Positions 7,713 to 62,000 of a stretch of 64,000 bases of DNA are shown here, in pieces (position 1 is the stretch's first letter; each line of letters starts with the position of its first letter). The notes beneath the pieces were generated by a model that saw only the letters and a list, made by a program, of their open reading frames with translations, was not told where the DNA came from and searched no databases. This DNA is from Escherichia phage QL01. The position numbers and the translations under genes were made by a program. Location: sequence record NC_028847.1, one strand, 5' to 3'.

Positions 7713-8335
7713 TACATCACCTTAAAGAACTCTTTAAGTCCCTCAATAACGTGGACGGTGTGTTCACCACATTCACAAGAAATAGGTATAGCCAAAATAG
7801 GCTTAGGGGCGACTAGTGCATCATAAACTTCTTTTATATCTTTTTCTGTTATCACAGAATAAAGGTCATCAAGTTCCGCATCGCTTAAATCGGAAAGAAA
7901 AAGCTTTTCACCTGCAGAAGTTAAAATATAATCGATACACCCGGCGACCATCATAGCTCTATTTTTATCTTCAAAGAGTTTAGGATATCTGAAAACAATT
8001 TTAAAGTTGCCAAAGTCTTTAATAACATCCGGCTCTTTACCCAATGTTGCTCGAGTTAGTGTCATAGGGACAACCTGTGAGCGACCACAACTACAACTCC
8101 ACTCACGTTCTATATTCACTTCAGCTAATGAATGGGCCCACAGGTTTATCACCAGGAGCTCAGATTCTTGCTTGTTTAAATCACGGGCATCTGTGCAATT
8201 CGAAATGAGTTCATTGATAAAGGACTCTATTCTGCCTTCTAATTTAGCTTGGAGCAAGTCCTTATATTCTCTGAGGGTAAATGCTCTGCATTTTATGGTT
8301 TTGTTTTTAATTTTTACGTCAAAAGTATAATTCAT
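7712..8335 (-). CDS. 26: Baseplate hub protein gp26
   Basis: 207 aa (T4 gp26 is 208 aa); position between 25 and 51; strong SD. Confidence 0.8.
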   Translation of the reverse strand: MNYTFDVKIKNKTIKCRAFTLREYKDLLQAKLEGRIESFINELISNCTDARDLNKQESELLVINLWAHSLAEVNIEREWSCSCGRSQVVPMTLTRATLGKEPDVIKDFGNFKIVFRYPKLFEDKNRAMMVAGCIDYILTSAGEKLFLSDLSDAELDDLYSVITEKDIKEVYDALVAPKPILAIPISCECGEHTVHVIEGLKEFFKVM

Positions 8336-25380: not shown

Positions 25381-25746
25381 TTAGATGTCGAATTCATTCA
25401 GAACTACATCAAAGATTGCTTCCAGGTGTTCAGGTTTAGCTCGGTTGCTCAGGATGTGACGAATCCAAGTTTTAACCAGAAGCTTACGATTAACACCGTT
25501 CCAGCAAGGATGGGTACCTAAATCACGTTGACGGAAATCATCATCTAAAGCGATTTTAAAAGTAGAACCTTCCATTGTGATTGAAACCGTAATACCATTT
25601 TCAAAGCGCATATAAACGTAGTTAGGAGTCATGCACTGTTCGATTTCGCACACCGCGCCGTTGTTGTGTTTCCACAGGCAAATAACTTCAGAAGAACCAG
25701 CGATACCGTTAGAAACATATTTACGTTCGAAGTTGATGTAGTTCAT
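25381..25746 (-). CDS. Hypothetical protein
   Basis: 121-aa ORF; SD GGAGAATAAA; preceded by promoter/stem-loop cassette. Confidence 0.55.
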   Translation of the reverse strand: MNYINFERKYVSNGIAGSSEVICLWKHNNGAVCEIEQCMTPNYVYMRFENGITVSITMEGSTFKIALDDDFRQRDLGTHPCWNGVNRKLLVKTWIRHILSNRAKPEHLEAIFDVVLNEFDI

Positions 25747-25776
25747 TTTATTCTCCAGTTTGTTTTCGTATTATTT

Positions 25777-25819: not shown

Positions 25820-26152
25820 TTATTTCACAACATTCCAATTTTTCATATCAAGTTTACCAACTTTTTTCATCTGAGCAATCAGACGTTCAGCACGTGTACG
25901 GGCATTAACATAATAGAATTCACCATTTTTGTTTTCTTCAATACGACCAGTAATTACAGTTTTCAGTTCATAAATCCAACCTGTAAAGAAGTTGTGAAGC
26001 TCGATGGTGAATGTAAAATCAGTACCCATACCTTCAGTTGTTTCAACTTCGATGATATCACCTTCAACTGCAGTCAGGACCCACATGGTTTCTTGATATT
26101 CACCGTTGAAACATTTAGCTTTAACAGATGCATTCAGATTTACAGTTTTCAT
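25820..26152 (-). CDS. Hypothetical protein
   Basis: 110-aa ORF; 5' leader nearly identical to that of the gene at 25381..25746. Confidence 0.55.
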   Translation of the reverse strand: MKTVNLNASVKAKCFNGEYQETMWVLTAVEGDIIEVETTEGMGTDFTFTIELHNFFTGWIYELKTVITGRIEENKNGEFYYVNARTRAERLIAQMKKVGKLDMKNWNVVK

Positions 26153-26193
26153 TTTATTCTCCAGTTTGTTTTAGTATTATTTGGTACATGTCT

Positions 26194-29360: not shown

Positions 29361-29399
29361 GGTAGGACTACTATACCACAGTCCTACCATAGTGTAAAC
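29361..29399 (-). promoter_or_regulatory. PeSL-like cassette (GTTTAC, 18 nt, TATAGT; 9-bp inverted repeat)
   Basis: GGTAGGACT/AGTCCTACC stem; -10 in loop. Confidence 0.45.
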
Positions 29400-32774: not shown

Positions 32775-33262
32775 TTGGTAATAATCTCGATGATGTCATC
32801 ACGTGACAGGGAATTAATAAGAACCGTTTTAGGATTTTCACACTGAATTTTATACGTTTCAAACATAAAACATAATTCTTCAGCAGTATGGTAAGGACTT
32901 GAAATGCCAAGGCGATTAAACTTGTCGCTTAATGGGTCGCAAATCAAATAGAACGTGATGCCTGAGATTTTAACATTAGGTTGGCTAATATTAATAAACA
33001 CCTCGGCATCGTATTTGGAAAGGTTGTTTTGGAGAAACTCGACCATAGAGTTAACAGCTTGAGGCATTGCTTCACGCTTTTCTTCAGCATAACGGGTAGA
33101 GTATTCTTTTTGCTTGATTTTCTTTTTAGCATTTTTAGCTAAAGTAACACGAAGATCGGTCAGGTAACCTACTGCACGAGAACCTTTAAAAACTTGGATG
33201 CCGTCAGTAGAGTCACCAAAAGCCTTAACAACCATTTCGTTAGTAATCATTTGCATATTCAT
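32762..33262 (-). CDS. alc: Alc-like host transcription terminator
   Basis: 166 aa (T4 Alc is 167 aa); position between spanins and rnlA; sequence not independently recalled. Confidence 0.5.
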   Translation of the reverse strand: MNMQMITNEMVVKAFGDSTDGIQVFKGSRAVGYLTDLRVTLAKNAKKKIKQKEYSTRYAEEKREAMPQAVNSMVEFLQNNLSKYDAEVFINISQPNVKISGITFYLICDPLSDKFNRLGISSPYHTAEELCFMFETYKIQCENPKTVLINSLSRDDIIEIITKCLN

Positions 33263-33292
33263 TTTGTTTTCTCCTCATTAGTTGGTAAGTCT

Positions 33293-33321
33293 ATACTAAC
33301 ACGTCATGAGGAGATGTAAAC
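33293..33321 (-). promoter_or_regulatory. Early-type promoter (GTTTAC, 17 nt, TAGTAT) upstream of alc
   Basis: Canonical spacing. Confidence 0.45.
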
Positions 33322-38815: not shown

Positions 38816-40501
<1,686 letters not shown>

Positions 40502-40521
40502 TTTATTCTCCTTAGTTGATA

Positions 40522-40556
40522 AGGCTATAGTATCACTACCATAGCCTGGTGTAAAC
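40522..40556 (-). promoter_or_regulatory. PeSL-like cassette (GTTTAC, 18 nt, TACTAT; AGGCTAT/ATAGCCT stem)
   Basis: Early promoter hexamers with inverted repeat spanning the -10. Confidence 0.45.
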
Positions 40557-40784
40557 TTATTTTTGAATTAAGCCCATATAAAATTTAGCGTCTTCCGGGT
40601 GCATACCGTCACAATACTCGTCAGCCATAAAGCGGGTAAGGTCTTCAAGAGGACCTTGGACTTCAATTTGCATACTACAGAATTGGGTATCTTTAATATG
40701 GGTCATAACTAAAGAAGGATAACGATTACGGATAACTTCGTAAGTGTATTCAAAATCAACGATATCAATATTAACCTTAGCCAT
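40557..40784 (-). CDS. Hypothetical protein
   Basis: Start at internal ATG after SD GAGGAAAATAAA; 75 aa. Confidence 0.5.
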
Positions 40785-40816
40785 TTTATTTTCCTCACTC
40801 ATTAGTTGATAGGTCT

Positions 40817-40845
40817 ATAGTATCATGTTTAAAGGCATTGTAAAC
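40817..40845 (-). promoter_or_regulatory. Early-type promoter (GTTTAC, 17 nt, TACTAT)
   Basis: Shares the conserved AGACCTATCAACTAATGAG leader with other copies. Confidence 0.5.
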
Positions 40846-40847
40846 AC

Positions 40848-41108
40848 TTATTTTTGAATTTTATCAAGCCATTTACCAAGCTTAATCATTTCTTTGGTAG
40901 CTTTTTCCATACTTCTAAATTTAACCAGTAAAGGTTGGGCATCAACACCCATAACTAAGGTGGTTACAAGACTATGTTCACCTACAAGCCATAATGAATA
41001 AGTTTGGATATCGAGCCCGTAATTTCGGTCTTTATGAACTCGTACACCCATCACTTCAAATTTCTCACTGGCTTTTTCTACTGCATCCAGGAAATCATCT
41101 TTAGTCAT
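40848..41108 (-). CDS. Hypothetical protein
   Basis: Track ORF begins at TTG; internal ATG with SD AAGG just after upstream stop; 86 aa. Confidence 0.45.
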   Translation of the reverse strand: MTKDDFLDAVEKASEKFEVMGVRVHKDRNYGLDIQTYSLWLVGEHSLVTTLVMGVDAQPLLVKFRSMEKATKEMIKLGKWLDKIQK

Positions 41109-41109
41109 A

Positions 41110-41499
41110 TTAGGCCTTAAAAGTTTTTTGCAAAAGTTCAATGATTTGGTCAACGTTCTGTTCGGTGACAATGCAATGGATTTGAGTCACACCGGCCTTA
41201 GCAATAGGCTCATCGATTTCTTTATCTTCCACAACATATTCACGGAAGCAATAGAACTCGTCTTCATGCAACTCAAAATAATTTGGCACCAACCCAACTT
41301 CATTATAAATCTCGCCGTTAGCGCATTCGATTTCAGTCACAAATTTGTCGCCATCCATAGTCACCATATCCTTTACTTCAAACCAACCGCCGTTGTCTTG
41401 GATAAGGCCGACCATGCTTTTATTATTTTCATATTCGTCCATTTCAATAAAGTCTTTAATGCATTCAGGACGAAGTTCATAAGTTTTACCGATTTCCAT
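41110..41499 (-). CDS. Hypothetical acidic protein
   Basis: 129-aa ORF; SD GAGGAAA; preceded by early promoter. Confidence 0.55.
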   Translation of the reverse strand: MEIGKTYELRPECIKDFIEMDEYENNKSMVGLIQDNGGWFEVKDMVTMDGDKFVTEIECANGEIYNEVGLVPNYFELHEDEFYCFREYVVEDKEIDEPIAKAGVTQIHCIVTEQNVDQIIELLQKTFKA

Positions 41500-41529
41500 T
41501 TTTATTTCCTCATGTAGTTGATAGGGCCT

Positions 41530-41558
41530 ATAGTATCATGTTTAAAGGCGTTGTAAAC
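41530..41558 (-). promoter_or_regulatory. Early-type promoter (GTTTAC, 17 nt, TACTAT)
   Basis: Near-identical to the cassette at 40817-40845. Confidence 0.5.
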
Positions 41559-41610
41559 CATTAAATGCCAAAAAGGGAAGACCGAAGTCTTCCCATTATA
41601 AATCAATAAC

Positions 41611-42516
41611 TTATAGACCAGCTAACAGGTCGTCCAGACCATCGTCATCAGAAGGACTTACTGACGGCTCAGGAGTAGTGGAACGAGTCGGTGTAGATGG
41701 TTTAGAATCATATGCATCAAGGTCTGCACTGAATGCGTCCAGGTCATCACCAATCTTATCAGCGGCTGCAGAAGCTTTAGCGGCAGCACCACCAAGAGCA
41801 GCTGTACCAACAACTTTCTTAAACTTGGCTTCGTTAGTTTCGAATGATTTGAAATCGAGCAGTTTAGAAAGGTCGTGCATTTCTTCCATCAATTTAGCTT
41901 GGTAAGCTTCATCATTGATGTTAGGAATTTCAGACTGACCCATGAATTTGGAATCGTCATAGTTCTTGAAGTCGCCAACTTTCTTAGATTTCAGTACGAA
42001 GTTCGCACCATCAAACGGACATGTTACGTCAACCGGCACTTCACCAATATCGGTATCAACTTCAACCATCTGGTTGATTTTATCCATAATTTTCTGACCG
42101 AAACGGAATTTAAACACTTTACCTTCGTTAGCAGGCACTGCACTATCCTTAATAACAAGGATGTTAGCCCAGAAGGAAGTTTTACGTTTCATCAGTTTGT
42201 ATTCGGCATTATTAGTATTAAAGGTATCATTCTGGTTCATGTATTTACATACAGGACATGAATCGAAATCACCGTGTGTAGACGTACAGTTTTCAATGTA
42301 CCATTGACCATTTTTCTTAAAGCCGTGGTTAACGAGCTTAATGAATGGAGATGGATTTTCTTCGTTTTTCGAAGGTAGGAAACGAATTACCGCAGTACCA
42401 ACGCCATTGTCATCTTTCAATTTCCATTCAGCTTTATCATCGGAAGAGAAAGAAGAACCACCTTTCATTGCAGACAGTTGAGCAGCCAGTTGGGAAGGGT
42501 CTTTACGTTTAAACAT
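41611..42516 (-). CDS. 32: Single-stranded DNA-binding protein gp32
   Basis: 301 aa (T4 gp32 is 301 aa); FLPSKNE, zinc ligands, acidic C-terminus ...DDLLAGL. Confidence 0.95.
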
Positions 42517-42605
42517 ATTATTTACCTTAGCAGATTTAGCAGTTATATTTTATTAACAGTTTTTAACAGATTGAGTTAGTATATTAACACAGTTGGTTTG
42601 AAGCA
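42517..42605 (-). promoter_or_regulatory. Gene 32 5' leader, putative autogenous translational operator
   Basis: ~90-nt A/U-rich leader with repeated UUAAA/UAAA motifs; by analogy to T4 gp32 autoregulation. Confidence 0.4.
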
Positions 42606-43259
42606 TTAAAACTTACAAGATTTGATAGTTTCAATGAACAATTTACGAGCTTCTAAATTATCGATTATAAGAATTTTCTTATAAGCATTTAATTTAGTCG
42701 AATACTTAGACCATACTAAATCGTTGGTCTGTTCATCATGTTTATTTATTATATCCATAAATGAATCAAGCAAAATAAACGTTTCGAATGAAATCACATT
42801 CGATTGAAGGAGCTTAAAAATATAGCTCGAGTTAACTTTTTTATTATAATCAAAAATTTCAGAAAGCGCTTGAACTTCCACTTTCTTACTAAAATAATAA
42901 ATGTTTTTGATATCATCCTCAAAAACTTGTTTTATTCTTTTAAGTCTACCGATATATTCTCGGTAAAAGACTAAGGCGTCAGCATCACTGATGTCGCCAA
43001 TCCATGCGTCTTGGTTAGCCACCAAGTTACTCATGAAGATAAGAGCAAGCTCTTTCAAAGTGTATTTATCACTCAATTTCTCAAAGAAATATTTGTCACG
43101 ACGTTTTTGATAAGCCGTATCAGAGATTCGCATGACCCAGTTATATTTTATAACGTCGTATTTGGCATTGAAGTGATGTTTGAGCATTAAGTATAGTGAA
43201 TATACGCTCTTACCATTCACCATACGGTTATTGTTTGGTGGCATGCGAATCTTAATCAT
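42606..43259 (-). CDS. 59: Helicase loader gp59
   Basis: 217 aa (T4 gp59 is 217 aa); position directly upstream of gene 32. Confidence 0.9.
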   Translation of the reverse strand: MIKIRMPPNNNRMVNGKSVYSLYLMLKHHFNAKYDVIKYNWVMRISDTAYQKRRDKYFFEKLSDKYTLKELALIFMSNLVANQDAWIGDISDADALVFYREYIGRLKRIKQVFEDDIKNIYYFSKKVEVQALSEIFDYNKKVNSSYIFKLLQSNVISFETFILLDSFMDIINKHDEQTNDLVWSKYSTKLNAYKKILIIDNLEARKLFIETIKSCKF

Positions 43260-44873: not shown

Positions 44874-47800
44874 ATGGCCGATATTTTAAAACCTGCCTTC
44901 CGTGCTACATCCGGACTCGATGCTGCAGGCGAGAAAGTTATCAATGTTGCCAAAGCCGATTACAATGTATTAGACGACGGCGTCAACGTTGAATTCTTTA
45001 TAGATGAGAACACCATCCAGGCGTACGACGAGACGCGCGGATATAAGAAAGGGTTTGCCGTAATCCATGACCAACGTATCTGGGTTGCTCAACGTGATAT
45101 CAATGCTCCAGCAGGAACCTTTGTACCTGGTTATTGGACTGCTACCCGTACTGACCCTAAATGGATTACCGTAGCATCTCCTACACGCCAGCTGGCTTCC
45201 GGTGAATATATTGCTGTGGATTCTGCTGCTAGCTTTACTACATTTACCCTGCCTCCGAACCCTACTGATGGTGATACCATCGTAATCAAGGATATTGGTG
45301 GCCGTGTAGGTTATAATGAAATTAAGCTCCAGTCTAGTTCTGCTCCAGGTGGTGGTAATCAGAAAATTGTCCGTTTCGGTAACCAGTTCACTGAGACCTT
45401 AATTACGAAGCCTTTTTCCTATAATATGATTATCTTTGCCAACCGTTTATGGCATTTCTGGGAAGCAGCTAATGAAGAACGTGGTATTCGTGTAGAACCG
45501 AACACCGCCCAGTTCCAATCACAAGCGGGTGATAACGTTTTACGTCGTTATACTTCAGGTGCAGTAATTAAGTTTACTCTTCCTAAGTATGCGAACCAAG
45601 GTGATATTATTAAAACCGTTGATATCGATGGTTTAGGAAGTAAATTCCACTTAATCGTTGAAACATTTGATGCGTCATCTTCATTAGGTAAGCCTGGCCA
45701 GCATAGCATGGAATTCCGTACTTCAGGTGATGGATTCTTTGTTTATAACTCTACCGAAAAATTATGGTATGTTTGGGACGGCGACCGACAAACTCGTTTA
45801 CGTGTAATTCGTGACGATGTTGAACTCTTGGCTAACGAAAGTGTTATTGTTTTTGGTCCTAATAACACGACACCCCAGACAATTAATATCACATTACCTA
45901 CCGGTGTGGCCCAGGGTGATGTCGTTAAGATTGCTCTGAACTATCTCCGTAAAGCTCAGACAGTAAATATTAAGGCTGCCGTAGGAGATAAGATTGCTTC
46001 ATCCGTCCAGTTGCTTCAATTCCCTAAACGTTCAGAATATCCACCAGAAACCGAATGGGTATTGAATGACGTACTGACCTTTAATGGCAATATAAGTTAT
46101 ACTCCGGTTATTGAACTGAGTTATATCGAAGACACCACTACAGGTGGCAAATATTGGGTTGTTGCCCAGAACGTTCCTACTATAGAACGTGTGGATTCTA
46201 AAGATGATTTAACTCGTGCTCGTTTAGGTGTTATTGCCCTTGCGTCCCAGACTCAAGCAAACGTTGACCATGAAAATAATCCTGAAAAAGAACTTGCAAT
46301 TACTCCACAGACTTTAGCTAATCGTGTAGCGACTGAATCTCGTCGTGGTATTGCTCGTATTGCTACTACTGCTCAGGTGAACCAGGACACAACCTTCGCA
46401 TTCCAGGACGATTTGATTATTTCTCCTAAGAAATTAAACGAACGTACTGCAACCGAAACCCGCCGTGGTGTTGCTGAAATTGCTACGCAAGTTGAAACTG
46501 ATGCTGGTATAGATGATACTACAATCATCACTCCTAAGAAGCTACAAGCGCGCCAGGGTTCGGAAAGTCTTTCAGGTATTGTAACATATACCTCTACTGT
46601 AGGAACCACTCCTGCGACTGCTAGGGACACCGTAGGTACTAACGTTTATAATAATAACGTAGGCAATTTGGTTATTTCTCCTAAAGCTCTTGACCAGTAT
46701 AAAGCTACCCAAGTTCAACAGGGTACGGTATATCTTTCTAACCAATCTGAAGTTAACGCAGGCCAATCGGCAAGTGGATTTGCCAACAGTGCTGTTTCTC
46801 CGGAAACATTACATGCTCGTGTGGCTCTTGATACTCGTACAGGGTTAATTGAAATTGCTACGCAACAGGAAACTGATACTGGAACAGATTATACTCGTGC
46901 GGTAACGCCTAAGACGTTAAATGATAGGAAAGCTACGGAAGGATTGACTGGTATTGCTAGAATTGCAACACAGGTAGAATTTGATGCAGGTACGTTAGAT
47001 AATGTTATTTCAACTCCGTTGAAAATTAAAACAAGATTTAATGATACTGCTAGAACTTCTGTCTCAGCAGCCAGTGGTTTGGTTGAATCAGGAACCTTAT
47101 GGAACCATTATACACTAGATATTAGAGAAGCAAATGAGACACAACGTGGTACTGCTCGCCTGGCAACCCAGACCGAAGTCAACGTTGGTACTGATGACAA
47201 AACCATCATCACTCCTTTGAAATTACACTCTAAAAAATCTACTGAAAGTTCTGAAGGTATTATTCGTGTTGCAACCAATACCGAAACAACCGCAGGAACT
47301 TCTAAAGTTTTGGCTGTAAGCCCTTCTGGTTTAAAATATGTAGTACAGACCGAAACTACTTGGGAAGCTACTGCACTTCGTCGTGGATTTGTTAAATTAA
47401 CCGAAGGTGCTTTAACCCATTCAGGAAATAAAGTTACTGGTTCTGGTGTTAAATTCAACTCAGGTACAGGCCTTTATGAGAACGATGATACTGTTCTGAA
47501 CGCAGCGAACTATCCTAAAACGGGTTATGCGGTTTCATCTTACGAGATGAATAAAACTTTACAGAACTTTTTACCTATAAATGCTACGGCTGTGAACTCC
47601 GAGAAATTGGATGGCCTAGATTCACTCCAGTTCATTCGTAGAGACGTCGATCAAACGGTTAATGGTTCTTTAACCCTGACCAAACAATTGAACCTGGCAG
47701 CTCCTCTAGTGTCTTCTAGTACTGCTAATATTACCGGCAATACTATTTTAGGTTCTCTGGAAGTAACCGGAAATTCTACTTTTAAAAATGATGTATCTGT

Positions 47801-55625: not shown

Positions 55626-55897
55626 AAATTGGAGGTATACATCATTAAGTAACGGTGTATATCTTCATACCCTTCATTAAATTGCTCAATAAGAGTGTCA
55701 CGTTCATCTTCAGTTAATGACTTAAATAATTTGTTATAAGACAAACCATTAAGTTCCTTTCCATGTTCATTACGAATACCCAACTCATTCAAAAAGGCAA
55801 TAAACTCATCACGACGTTGCATGATGTCTTCACAATCCGTTTTAATCAAAATGGAAACAATAGTAGCAATTTCGGAAACAATTTCAATTTTAGTCAT
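55622..55897 (-). CDS. asiA: Anti-sigma-70 AsiA
   Basis: 91 aa; ...IAFLNE.G.....K.LN..S..K....LT.E...TLI..FNEG.E....YL.MYT matches recalled T4 AsiA. Confidence 0.85.
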   Translation of the reverse strand: MTKIEIVSEIATIVSILIKTDCEDIMQRRDEFIAFLNELGIRNEHGKELNGLSYNKLFKSLTEDERDTLIEQFNEGYEDIHRYLMMYTSNF

Positions 55898-55938
55898 AAT
55901 ATTCTCTTCAATTCAGTACGTCATTATCTGATAGGGCT

Positions 55939-55967
55939 ATACTAACATATCCTTAGGGATTGTAAAC
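55939..55967 (-). promoter_or_regulatory. Early promoter for asiA (GTTTAC, 17 nt, TAGTAT)
   Basis: Canonical spacing; -35 overlaps end of upstream small ORF. Confidence 0.5.
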
Positions 55968-57461: not shown

Positions 57462-58094
57462 TCAGATTGCGTTGGTTACGGTTTTGATAACTTCAGATGA
57501 TACGTTTTGGAAGTCGATATAAGTATTCTTACCACCAGTCTTAATCTTAACATCAAGATTCAAGGAAGTAAACACTTGTTTTTCTTTATCAGTCATATTA
57601 TAACCGAAGATACGCATCATTCCATCACGACGGACTTCGATTTGACGAATACCGTTGGTACGTTTAGCGAATCGAACTTCAAGGTTGCTACGGTTTTCAG
57701 CAATTTCACGAATCTCGATACGGTCTTCTAATAAAGCTTTAACTTCATCAGCCAGTGTTACCATTTCAGGAGTAACACCACGTGAACTACGCGTTTTACG
57801 TTTTTCCAACATCTCTGGAGCATTTTCAGAAGCGAACAAGTCAGCAGCTTTTTGAACTAGGTCCATTGCTTCACCTGTAGCCACTAGTCCGTCACCAGAT
57901 TTTTCGATGAATCCTTTCTTAATTAATACACCGATATTAGAGTTAACTACCGCAGCACTAAATTGCTCACTCAGGGCTTCACGGACTTCGCCTGAAGTGA
58001 TGAAGTTATGCTTGATGATATGTACTAAGATCGAAGCCGTTTTTTCATTCAGGGCGTCTTCAGAAGCTTTGATGATATAAGTAATTTTAGACAT
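57462..58094 (-). CDS. motA: MotA middle-transcription activator
   Basis: 210 aa (T4 MotA is 211 aa); MSKITYIIKAS...VNSNIGVLIKKGF.EKSGDGL matches recalled T4 MotA. Confidence 0.9.
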   Translation of the reverse strand: MSKITYIIKASEDALNEKTASILVHIIKHNFITSGEVREALSEQFSAAVVNSNIGVLIKKGFIEKSGDGLVATGEAMDLVQKAADLFASENAPEMLEKRKTRSSRGVTPEMVTLADEVKALLEDRIEIREIAENRSNLEVRFAKRTNGIRQIEVRRDGMMRIFGYNMTDKEKQVFTSLNLDVKIKTGGKNTYIDFQNVSSEVIKTVTNAI

Positions 58095-58128
58095 TTTAAT
58101 CTCCGATAACCATTTATTTGATAGGTCT

Positions 58129-58157
58129 ATAGTACCATGTTTAAAGCAGAAGTAAAC
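58129..58157 (-). promoter_or_regulatory. Early promoter for motA (GTTTAC, 17 nt, TACTAT)
   Basis: Canonical T4 early promoter spacing. Confidence 0.5.
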
Positions 58158-61108: not shown

Positions 61109-61374
61109 AATATTTTCCTCAGAAGTTAAAGAATACACGTACATGGTCAATCATAAAAACGATTGGGAAAATGCTCAATACCATTAACAACACAAACATG
61201 TTCCAAATTGCTTTAAGTAAGTTTTTCATAATCATCTCCATTAGTTGATAGGTCTATAATATCATGATTAATGGAGATGTATACTGATTTATGCCAATTT
61301 CCACAACAATAAACTAAAACATACGCAAATCACTGGGATACAGGCCATCCAAATAAGGCACCACATTTTGCTAC

Positions 61375-61641
61375 TCAAAACACCACCTCTTTTATCTCAA
61401 TTAATCCCCTGTGCAATGCAGTACGAAGGTCATAAAGAATATCTATGCCGTCAACATTATCCAGTTTTCCATCAATAAGCTTTTCTAAATCTTCCTTTGA
61501 TGCGATTAAGGGACGGAGAAATTTACATTCAGAAAGAGATAACTCTGTAGTAACATCACCACCTTCACCTGATGCATCATACATAGCGGCAACAACCATA
61601 CCTGTAACTTTGTGTTTAGCGTAATATAATTTGATATCCAT
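61375..61641 (-). CDS. Hypothetical protein
   Basis: 88-aa ORF with SD GAGGAGAACAAA. Confidence 0.5.
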   Translation of the reverse strand: MDIKLYYAKHKVTGMVVAAMYDASGEGGDVTTELSLSECKFLRPLIASKEDLEKLIDGKLDNVDGIDILYDLRTALHRGLIEIKEVVF

Positions 61642-61697
61642 TTTGTTCTCCTCATTAGTTGATAGGAAGATAGTAACACCATCCGTGGCATTATAAC

Positions 61698-61925
61698 TTA
61701 AGCAACAGAATGTTTTGGATGCTGTTTAGCCCAACCTACTAAAAATTCCCAATACTTTTCGATAGAACCGTAAAGATTAATTACTGTAGGAGTGGTAACT
61801 TCAGTCCAATCTTTTTGAACATTACCCGTTTTAATATTGGTAAGCTTGTGAAACACTTTACCATTCTCAAATTTATATTCTTCGATTTTACGATTGATTG
61901 CTTTAACATAAGTAATAGAAGTCAT
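61698..61925 (-). CDS. Hypothetical protein
   Basis: Start at internal ATG after SD GAGGAAAATATT; 75 aa. Confidence 0.45.
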   Translation of the reverse strand: MTSITYVKAINRKIEEYKFENGKVFHKLTNIKTGNVQKDWTEVTTPTVINLYGSIEKYWEFLVGWAKQHPKHSVA

Positions 61926-62000
61926 AATATTTTCCTCTCGTGTAGTTGATAGGAAGATAGTAACACCATCCATGGCGTATGTAAATACTATTTTAAAAAT

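Follow-up and report, generated by a model that had tools for sequence, protein, structure and literature searches.

Probable T4-type early promoters packaged as stem-loop cassettes between genes 32 and frd of Escherichia phage QL01

Between genes 32 and frd of Escherichia phage QL01 (NC_028847.1), three near-identical units of 60 to 80 bp stand before frd.2 and an 86-residue open reading frame (ORF; here, orfX), before frd.3, and before frd.1, respectively. Our analysis of a 64,000-nucleotide stretch of this genome (here, the window) suggests that these units, which we call P1, P2, and P3 in that order, are very probably T4-type, sigma-70-dependent early promoters packaged as self-contained promoter-early stem-loop (PeSL) cassettes, which would serve as crossover points between gene modules. 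The elements are known in kind (T4-type early promoter or PeSL), of which the genus and the block provide a new and clean case with an unusually uniform start-site motif. The original prediction, which had described consecutive early-promoter elements with a conserved leader, overlooked the published name of this architecture. A 1.7-kb stretch around the cassettes is 99.9% identical to that of Shigella phage PSD9, 98 to 99% identical to those of WG01 and MX01, and 90% identical to that of JS98, and by sequence the phage is placed in Dhakavirus (the JS98/WG01 group) within Tevenvirinae, a subfamily in which roughly 350 genomes have matches to the block.

All three units follow one plan on the minus strand, which also encodes td, frd, and 32: an A-rich stretch, GTTTAC, 17 to 18 nt ending in TGn, TACTAT, AG(A/C)CCTATCAACTA, a Shine-Dalgarno (SD) sequence, and ATG. 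Aligned over 83 columns, they have a mean column identity of 82%, and an independent repeat finder paired P1 with P2 over 39 nt (90%), P2 with P3 over 28 nt (89%), and the A-rich upstream stretch, stop codon included, over 26 nt (81%). The near-identity reported before successive small ORFs is therefore real. Three cassettes indeed exist, but they serve four ORFs rather than three, as frd.2 and orfX share P1. The -35 and -10 boxes are those of a T4-type early promoter (GTTTAC and TACTAT, separated by 17, 17, and 18 nt in P1, P2, and P3), TGA precedes the -10 box in each case as an extended -10 element, and the orientation of P1 to P3 agrees with that of the genes downstream. Judged by GTTTAC, TGn, the -10 box, the A-rich stretch, the orientation, and the SD sequence with ATG, the early-promoter assignment thus fits every sequence test applied. 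The leader of P1 has one base more than the other copies. In P2 and P3 a stop codon lies 2 nt and 0 nt upstream of the -35 box, respectively, while P1 follows the predicted intrinsic terminator of gene 32 instead, with 11 nt between the terminator hairpin and the -35 box; a terminator downstream of gene 32 was predicted in five of six T4-like genomes (Nolan 2006, PMC1524935). The last codons (IQK-stop) of orfX (40846-40860) and of Frd.3 (40557-40569; ATTCAAAAATAA) are part of the repeated A-rich stretch, and the cassette thus dictates the C terminus of the upstream protein. A scan of 39000-43000 against Rfam at E<=1 gave no match to a known RNA family.

The cassettes recur throughout the window. 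GTTTAC-N15-19-TAYWAT has 8 matches, all on the minus strand (0.40 expected), and TACTATAGNCCTATCAACTA, with at most 3 mismatches, also has 8 (0.01 expected). Counting P1, nine copies carry the leader, P1 to P3 and six more, all on the minus strand and each with an SD sequence and ATG 24 to 35 nt downstream. The related copies that the original prediction had placed at about 33293, 55939, 58129, and 61240-61990 are among them. The consensus search that it had proposed for related genomes was extended to IMG/VR, in which the exact motif is found almost wholly on contigs of T4-like size (mostly 155-173 kb), with few matches on short contigs. Copies per genome reach about 10 (JS98 has about 10), on one strand only.

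To describe the leader, we assembled 43 candidate early promoters from the window and from WG01 (1-80 kb), chosen on the -35 box, TGn, the -10 box, and a downstream SD sequence and ATG only. A is the most frequent base at -43 to -39, an UP-like region. The information content at each position from -3 to +6 (CCTATCAAC, CCT-ATCAAC) is 0.4-1.4 bits, similar to that of the -35 hexamer; of the 43 candidates, 34 have C at -3, 32 have C at -2, 34 have T at -1, 31 have A at +1, 29 have C at +3, and 32 have A at +5. Because this segment is as informative as the -35 box, the conserved leader, which is real, is not peculiar to the frd-32 block but forms part of a genus-wide promoter consensus. A preference for C at -3 to -1 had already been reported for other T4-like phages, namely RB69, RB49, and 44RR (Nolan et al. 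2006, PMC1524935), and the motif extends it. Conservation of the leader is best explained by the membership of -3 to +6 in the promoter consensus, together with a probable exchange of sequence among the cassettes as paralogues. T4 carries homologous promoters at the corresponding places, and the one before frd.1 has a near-identical leader, TACTAT-TACCCTATCAAAACTAATGGAG (CCCTATCAAAACTAATGGAG).

A somewhat unlikely alternative is that the leader (ATCAACTA and onward to the SD sequence) is kept mainly as an RNA signal, rather than as promoter DNA or through shared ancestry. It would then be an unstructured, A/C-rich landing pad for the ribosome or S1 joined to a RegB/S1 site, giving strong early translation followed by rapid inactivation. 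Leaders are nearly free of G and lack U runs between +1 and the SD sequence, and a RegB gene is present in WG01, which is near-identical to the window phage. The consensus of strong RegB/S1 sites is GG*AGRAYARAA (Durand et al. 2006, as cited in PMC3014915), and such sites typically lie in early intergenic translation-initiation regions (PMC3014915). Measured against the consensus as quoted there, GGAGRAYARAA has 4 exact matches in the 64-kb window (0.39 expected), all of them SD sequences of early cassettes: P3 and those with -35 boxes at 61697, 26222, and 25816. The SD sequence of P3, GGAGAATAAAA, is thus a putative cleavage site, whereas P1 and P2 carry GAGGAAA instead of GGAG and do not match the quoted consensus. 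Conservation is highest at -3 to -1 (CCT), which precede the predicted start and hence are absent from the RNA, and the motif is accordingly at least partly a DNA signal for the discriminator and start-site context. Moreover, an RNA signal could exist alongside promoter function and is no substitute for the promoter explanation.

PeSL cassettes were described in RB49/phi1 (Arbiol 2010, PMC2839356) and in PST/T4 and nt-1/KVP40 (Comeau 2014, PMC4122927). Their parts are an AT-rich region that holds the stop codon of the preceding gene, sigma-70-like boxes, a stem-loop that mostly lies between the boxes or overlaps the -10 box, and a 3' SD sequence with ATG, and they sit in hyperplastic regions (PMC2839356, PMC4122927). 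P2 (ATTCAAAAATAAGT-GTTTAC) and P3 (ATTCAAAAATAA-GTTTAC) have the stop codon in an AT-rich context, and the SD sequence with start codon stands at the 3' end. The stem-loop varies: P1 has the terminator hairpin upstream and no internal hairpin in its fold, P3 has an 11-bp hairpin over the -10 box, and P2 has none (z=+1.3). Orthologues of P2 in JS98 and in loci L011, L008, L010, and L006 have a hairpin-type spacer.

The AGGCTAT/ATAGCCT inverted repeat noted by the original prediction in one cassette is the core of the P3 hairpin, which is longer than had been stated. It comprises 11 pairs, including one G.U, with a 5' arm (AGGCTATGGTA) in the spacer and a 3' arm (TACTATAGCCT) over the -10 box and discriminator, and has a minimum free energy of -17.5 kcal/mol in an 81-nt context (z-score -2.64); none of 200 spacer shuffles and none of 42 chimeras matched it. 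The hairpin spans -27 to -2 and ends 2 nt ahead of the predicted +1. Thus, it can form only in read-through RNA or in single-stranded DNA, and RNA initiated at P3 lacks it. The same arms are present in JS98, and compensatory arms occur in T4 (AGGGTAGTAGTG/TACTATTACCCT), L015 and L016 (GGGTTATGGT/ACTATAACCC), JS98 P2 (GGTCTATAG/CTATAGACC), L017 (GGTGTAGAGGC/GCTTCTACACC), L019 (GGTGTAGGAG/CTCTTACACC), and L006 (GGGAAC/GTTCCC). Among 15 aligned cassettes sharing the register of P3, 80.6% of cells pair, and 4 pairs (13 cells) show both-sided change. This covariation score was reached by 0 of 500 shuffles, a count that is not a probability since the sequences are paralogous or orthologous and share ancestry, and slid registers all scored much lower. 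A single column-wise model for all hairpins was dropped because the registers differ (T4-type hairpins are shifted by 1, WG01b-20442 by about 6); cassettes outside the P3 register were judged by per-sequence shuffles and chimeras.

Over the 43 candidates, native RNA from the spacer to ATG is predicted to be more stable by 4.4 kcal/mol than with shuffled spacers (Wilcoxon p=1.6e-6) and by 3.1 kcal/mol than chimeras with spacers of other promoters (p=0.005); for about 20 promoters, the native fold was better than those of at least 197 of 200 spacer shuffles. An action in RNA is suggested by G.U pairs in the stems and by strand stability, as predictions favor the sense over the antisense strand in 15 of 21 hairpins (p=0.027). 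Of the 10 promoters that come after an intrinsic terminator, 1 is of the hairpin type, compared with 19 of the remaining 33 (Fisher p=0.011), with the terminator classes assigned by eye and some of the candidates perhaps not promoters. A hairpin is thus usual in cassettes directly adjoining an upstream ORF and usually absent from those behind a terminator; P3, which abuts the frd.3 stop codon and has a hairpin, and P1, behind the gene 32 terminator, follow this pattern. Because hairpins are rare behind terminators, their most likely target is RNA coming in from upstream, and their distribution supports the view of the PeSL authors that the stem acts on incoming transcripts. The hairpin could attenuate such transcripts, or, in P3, it could shield the preceding frd.3 mRNA at its 3' end once RegB has cut 12 nt downstream. 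Three further hairpins between spacer and discriminator (8-12 bp, minus strand, the -10 box in the loop each time) were seen in the window, with -35 boxes at 29399 (GGTAGGACT/AGTCCTACC), 25816 (GGTACAGGT/ACCTGTACC), and 60541 (CGAGAATC/GGTTCTCG); none of 200 shuffles folded as well for the first two, and 3 of 200 did for the third.

Comparison among relatives shows that gene modules begin and end at the cassettes. ORFs and cassettes were mapped in 19 of 32 retrieved loci that encode relatives of Frd.1, and blastn served for the comparison with the window. The order is 32 / P1 / frd.2 orfX / P2 / frd.3 / P3 / frd.1 in the window and 32 / P / frd.3 frd.2 / P / frd.1 in T4 (P, promoter cassette), while L006 has frd.3 ahead of a frd.2'-orfX module and L011 has one module more, P-frd.2'-P. 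The L011 sequence ceases to match the window 8 nt before the P3 -35 box and matches again from the SD sequence; the additional module, with a cassette at either end, thus stands exactly in place of P3. In L006 and T4, the homology segments for the swapped modules also terminate within cassettes. In these three cases, therefore, breakpoints fall at cassette edges, as in PeSL regions. The spacer of P2, AATGCCTTTAAACATGA, is also the P1 spacer of JS98, for which the simplest reading would be an exchange between cassettes inside one genome. An origin of the repeats as by-products of gene duplication was rejected, because Pfam assigns the ORFs beside them to distinct families (FRD2, none, FRD3, and DUF5417); only frd.2 has diverged paralogues in some relatives. 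The JS98 locus (L001/L007, 1131-1889) has two such paralogues in tandem, frd.2a and frd.2b, whose products are 34% and 71% identical to the Frd.2 protein of the window; frd.2a retains the P1 cassette and its first five codons, which places the junction just within the ORF and not in the cassette.

Taken together, the following scheme may be proposed. Host RNA polymerase would fire at each cassette right after infection, so that the modules frd.2 with orfX, frd.3, and frd.1 onward to frd each have their own short-leader mRNA. Each cassette would present, in order, an upstream stop codon in an A-rich, UP-like stretch, GTTTAC, a spacer ending in TGn, TACTAT, AG(A/C)CCT-ATCAAC, a short A/C-rich untranslated leader, and an SD sequence with ATG. 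The resulting 60-80 bp patches of homology between unrelated ORFs may serve as crossover points, and this would explain the permuted, inserted, and deleted modules among relatives. Several points weigh against the reading as early promoters in PeSL cassettes. (i) Promoter activity in the window phage is deduced from consensus and from homology with T4. The T4 counterparts are presumably experimentally mapped early promoters; a literature search for T4 start-site RNA sequencing returned nothing relevant. (ii) P2 has no stem-loop in this genome, so that the PeSL definition applies only in part. (iii) The P3 hairpin is not followed by a U-tract (AGCCUUAUCAAC) and was not called by the terminator scan; it was thus rejected as a canonical intrinsic terminator, classical termination at this stem is unlikely, and the suggested attenuator role is borrowed by analogy from one RB49 construct. 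(iv) The shared ancestry of the aligned cassettes and the assignment of terminators by eye, both mentioned above, limit what the covariation and the hairpin distribution can say.

That the cassette hairpins act instead on DNA, as cruciforms or single-strand hairpins attracting a recombination or structure-specific nuclease and so driving exchange, we regard as quite unlikely. A stem-loop as a possible target of recombination proteins was raised as speculation by Arbiol (2010, PMC2839356), and the module breakpoints lie within cassettes. However, P1 and P2, which have no hairpin, are likewise at module borders, and the depletion of hairpins behind existing terminators argues for action on incoming transcripts. 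Stems with G.T pairs and a more stable sense strand in 15 of 21 cases are expected of RNA or of a single DNA strand. Almost no weight can be given to P1 to P3 being MotA-dependent middle promoters, or else chance, nonfunctional sigma-70 look-alikes left by duplication: a MotA-box-like TGC(C)TTTA is present in five spacers (P1, P2, that of the motA cassette, and those of two WG01 cassettes), but its distance to the -10 box is 7 nt where middle promoters require 11-13 nt (PMC1524935), P1 to P3 have a full GTTTAC -35 box unlike middle promoters, the nine copies are strand-specific and each precedes an SD sequence and ATG where chance predicts 0.01, and the ORFs flanking the cassettes are unrelated to each other. 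A MotA box in the TTTAAAC-type spacers was ruled out by the same spacing. The hairpin-less spacers share (C)TGC(C)TTTAAACATG, including TGCTTTA (window, 58157-58135, 41552-41536, and 40839-40823; WG01 [L038], 48796 and 48484), and spacers of this type mostly come right after intrinsic terminators.

The spacers may also have a second function. Complementarity between the spacer and the promoter's own downstream sequence is seen in about 20 of the 43 candidates, and T4 has at least three promoters of this kind: class A spacers (e.g., P3) pair with the -10 box and discriminator, and class B spacers pair with the leader and SD sequence. Class B pairs (ATCTCCTGTAG/CTACAGGAGAT, CTCCAGTAG/CTACTGGAG, CTCCTCATG/CATGAGGAG, and CTCCTGTAG/CTACAGGAG) show compensatory differences between cassettes, and their flanking bases covary. 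With spacers of the form ATCTCC..., they occur in the window at 33321-33260 (alc), 61284-61227, and 26222-26150, and in WG01 with -35 boxes at 47084, 40426, and 7845 (L038, minus strand) and at 8200 (denV) and 5599 (regB) (L039). In the alc cassette, TCTCCTCAT is complementary to ATGAGGAGA, and in that at 61227..61284, ATCTCCAT is complementary to ATGGAGAT, the SD sequence being included in both. The T4 promoter downstream of dexA (T4 L040, 8218) has class B pairing with a different sequence, and both arms co-change between the orthologous T4 and WG01 promoters at this place. Because transcription starts inside the loop, the helix can form only in RNA arriving from upstream. The cassette's own transcript would be open, translated, and cleavable by RegB, whereas the read-through transcript would be folded, masking the SD sequence or protecting the upstream 3' end. 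It is thus possible, although we stop short of favoring it, that the spacers of T4-type early promoters are more than spacers and, through self-complementarity, separate a promoter's own transcript from read-through RNA. Covariation of the spacer with its own -10 box or SD sequence may be a new observation; the PeSL papers (PMC2839356, PMC4122927) do not link the stems to the SD sequence or to translation. If functional, the self-complementarity would explain how closely packed tandem early promoters keep read-through RNA from being translated or cut by RegB as promoter-proximal RNA is, and it would account for consensus positions in the spacers of T4 early promoters that are so far unexplained (-27, -25, and -24, each a C). 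Conservation of the leader TATCA for pairing with the extended -10 TGATA was considered and rejected, since -13 and +2 do not covary (of the sequences with T at -13, seven have T at +2, four have C, three have A, and one has G), while a TATCA/TGATA helix does appear in class B folds. In the early-type promoter upstream of rnh (window 44826-44770, minus strand), the leader itself folds (GGACCTCTCAACTACTTGAACAGAGGTTCATATG; ACCTCT pairs with AGAGGT) and, unlike in the other cassettes, hides the SD sequence together with the start codon even in RNA that begins at this promoter.

The cassettes also bear on gene annotation. Mechanical ORF calling over-extends 3 of the 9 ORFs downstream of cassettes. 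The earlier statement that the leader misplaces several start codons thus holds for these three cassettes window-wide, that of frd.3 among them, but within the frd-32 block it applies to only one of three ORFs. For frd.3, ATG 40784 is supported by T4 Frd.3, which begins MAKV, and by the alignment of Pfam FRD3 (1-75/75) from this position, and the upstream ATG is ACG in JS98 and ATA in L010. The gene is annotated with 246 nt in PSD9 and IME08 and with 228 nt in JS98 and WG01; the PSD9/IME08 annotation is six codons overlong. As further observations, frd is annotated with 801 nt in IME08, running into frd.1, and JS98 orf229 overlaps frd.1 by 113 nt. In T4 (143500-148500, minus strand, about 146.03-146.10 kb), an SD sequence, ATG, and a 22-codon hydrophobic ORF, MFAPYIMAAVMLVCLYLLIKAC, directly follow the cassette upstream of frd.1. 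This ORF, between the frd.1 promoter and frd.1, is unannotated in NC_000866.4 and absent from the Dhakavirus window. The cassettes offer a simple rule for assigning start codons and transcription units in JS98-like phages.

Table 1. Positions of genes, cassettes, and related features in the window (promoter parts and start sites are predicted)
Feature	Position	Strand	Description
Gene 32	42516-41611	minus	
Intrinsic terminator after gene 32	41570..41594	minus	GGGAAGAC-TTCG-GTCTTCCC, then TTTTT; terminator scan and RNA fold; directly upstream of P1
Cassette P1	41497..41558	minus	-35 GTTTAC 41558-41553; 17-nt spacer AACGCCTTTAAACATGA; -10 TACTAT 41535-41530; predicted +1 about 41522-41523; leader AGGCCCTATCAACTACATGAGGAAATAAAA; ATG 41499 (frd.2)
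frd.2	41499-41110	minus	129 aa; Pfam FRD2; module 1, first ORF
orfX	41108-40848	minus	86 aa; no Pfam match; module 1, second ORF
Cassette P2	40782..40862	minus	A-rich stretch with stop codon ATTCAAAAATAAGT; -35 40845-40840; 17-nt spacer AATGCCTTTAAACATGA; -10 TACTAT 40822-40817; predicted +1 A 40810; leader AGACCTATCAACTAATGAGTGAGGAAAATAAA; ATG 40784 (frd.3); non-start ATG 40802 within leader
Over-extended start	40802	minus	MSEENKM...
frd.3	40784-40557	minus	75 aa; starts MAKV; Pfam Phage_FRD3 1-75/75; module 2
Cassette P3	40499..40572	minus	A-rich stretch with stop codon ATTCAAAAATAA; -35 40556-40551; 18-nt spacer; -10 TACTAT 40532-40527; predicted +1 A 40520; leader AGCCTTATCAACTAAGGAGAATAAA; ATG 40501 (frd.1)
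Hairpin in P3	40522..40547	minus	AGGCTATGGTA-GTGA-TACTATAGCCT
SD sequence of frd.1	40501..40511	minus	GGAGAATAAAA; exact match to the RegB/S1 consensus as quoted in PMC3014915; predicted unpaired
frd.1	40501-40262	minus	79 aa; Pfam DUF5417; module 3; frd next
frd	40254-39673	minus	td next after frd
Related cassette	61923..61986	minus	ATTTAC ... TACTAT CTTCCTATCAACTA ... ATG 61925
Over-extended start	61973	minus	MDGV...EENIM; inside promoter spacer, upstream of predicted start site
Related cassette	61639..61697	minus	-10 at 61675; leader CTTCCTATCAACTAATGAGGAGAACAAA; ATG 61641; SD sequence matches the RegB consensus as quoted
Related cassette	61227..61284	minus	GTATAC ... TATTAT AGACCTATCAACTAATGGAG; ATG 61229
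Over-extended start	61241	minus	MEMIM
Related cassette upstream of motA	58092..58157	minus	TTTAAAC-type spacer; intrinsic terminator before it
Related cassette upstream of asiA	55895..55967	minus	
Related cassette upstream of alc	33260..33321	minus	
-10 box starts of the nine copies	61962, 61675, 61261, 58134, 55944, 41535, 40822, 40532, 33298	minus	
Matches to the RegB consensus as quoted	25746-25756, 26152-26162, 40501-40511, 61641-61651	minus	

The basic picture of T4 biology is unchanged by these findings. The early promoters of T4 have an A-rich region at about -40, GTTTAC, TGn, and a -10 box (Hinton 2010, PMC2988021; PMC1524935), and the cassettes of the window share this anatomy, with "additional regions of consensus" acknowledged for T4 as well (PMC2988021, PMC1524935). 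They differ in that the -10 box is TACTAT here, not TATAAT, and in that frd.2 and frd.3 are swapped behind the promoters. In the T4 genes e, soc, 49, and I-TevI, a promoter lies within the 5' arm of a structure masking the SD sequence (PMC3014915). As in those genes, RNA started upstream would fold at 33321, 61284, and 26222, while RNA started internally would not. However, e, soc, 49, and I-TevI are single genes with late promoters, whereas many cassettes with early promoters are concerned here, and P1 to P3 do not sequester the SD sequence (in P3, about 10 nt separate it from the end of the upstream hairpin). If the proposed role of the spacers is true, the logic of these four genes would be generalized to a class of early promoters.

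For JS98, the PeSL authors mentioned "PeSL-like sequences" near gene 43 only (PMC2839356, PMC4122927), and the 32-frd block is a clear additional example, in a fourth T4 subgroup, of regulatory cassettes bordering swappable modules. In contrast to RB49, which has TTGACA, the -35 box here is GTTTAC, as in T4/PST; the stems of the window cassettes are not of the G-tract/C-tract type; the P2 stem has been lost in the lineage of the window; and the -3 to +6 motif is far more uniform than stated in the PeSL papers. The likeness lies in the same order of parts, in the repetition between small ORFs of a hyperplastic region, and in the position of indel and swap junctions of close relatives in the cassettes. 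Likewise, the segment from the -10 box to ATG is the most similar one here, and it is to this same segment that the crossovers of RB49 mini-circles were mapped.

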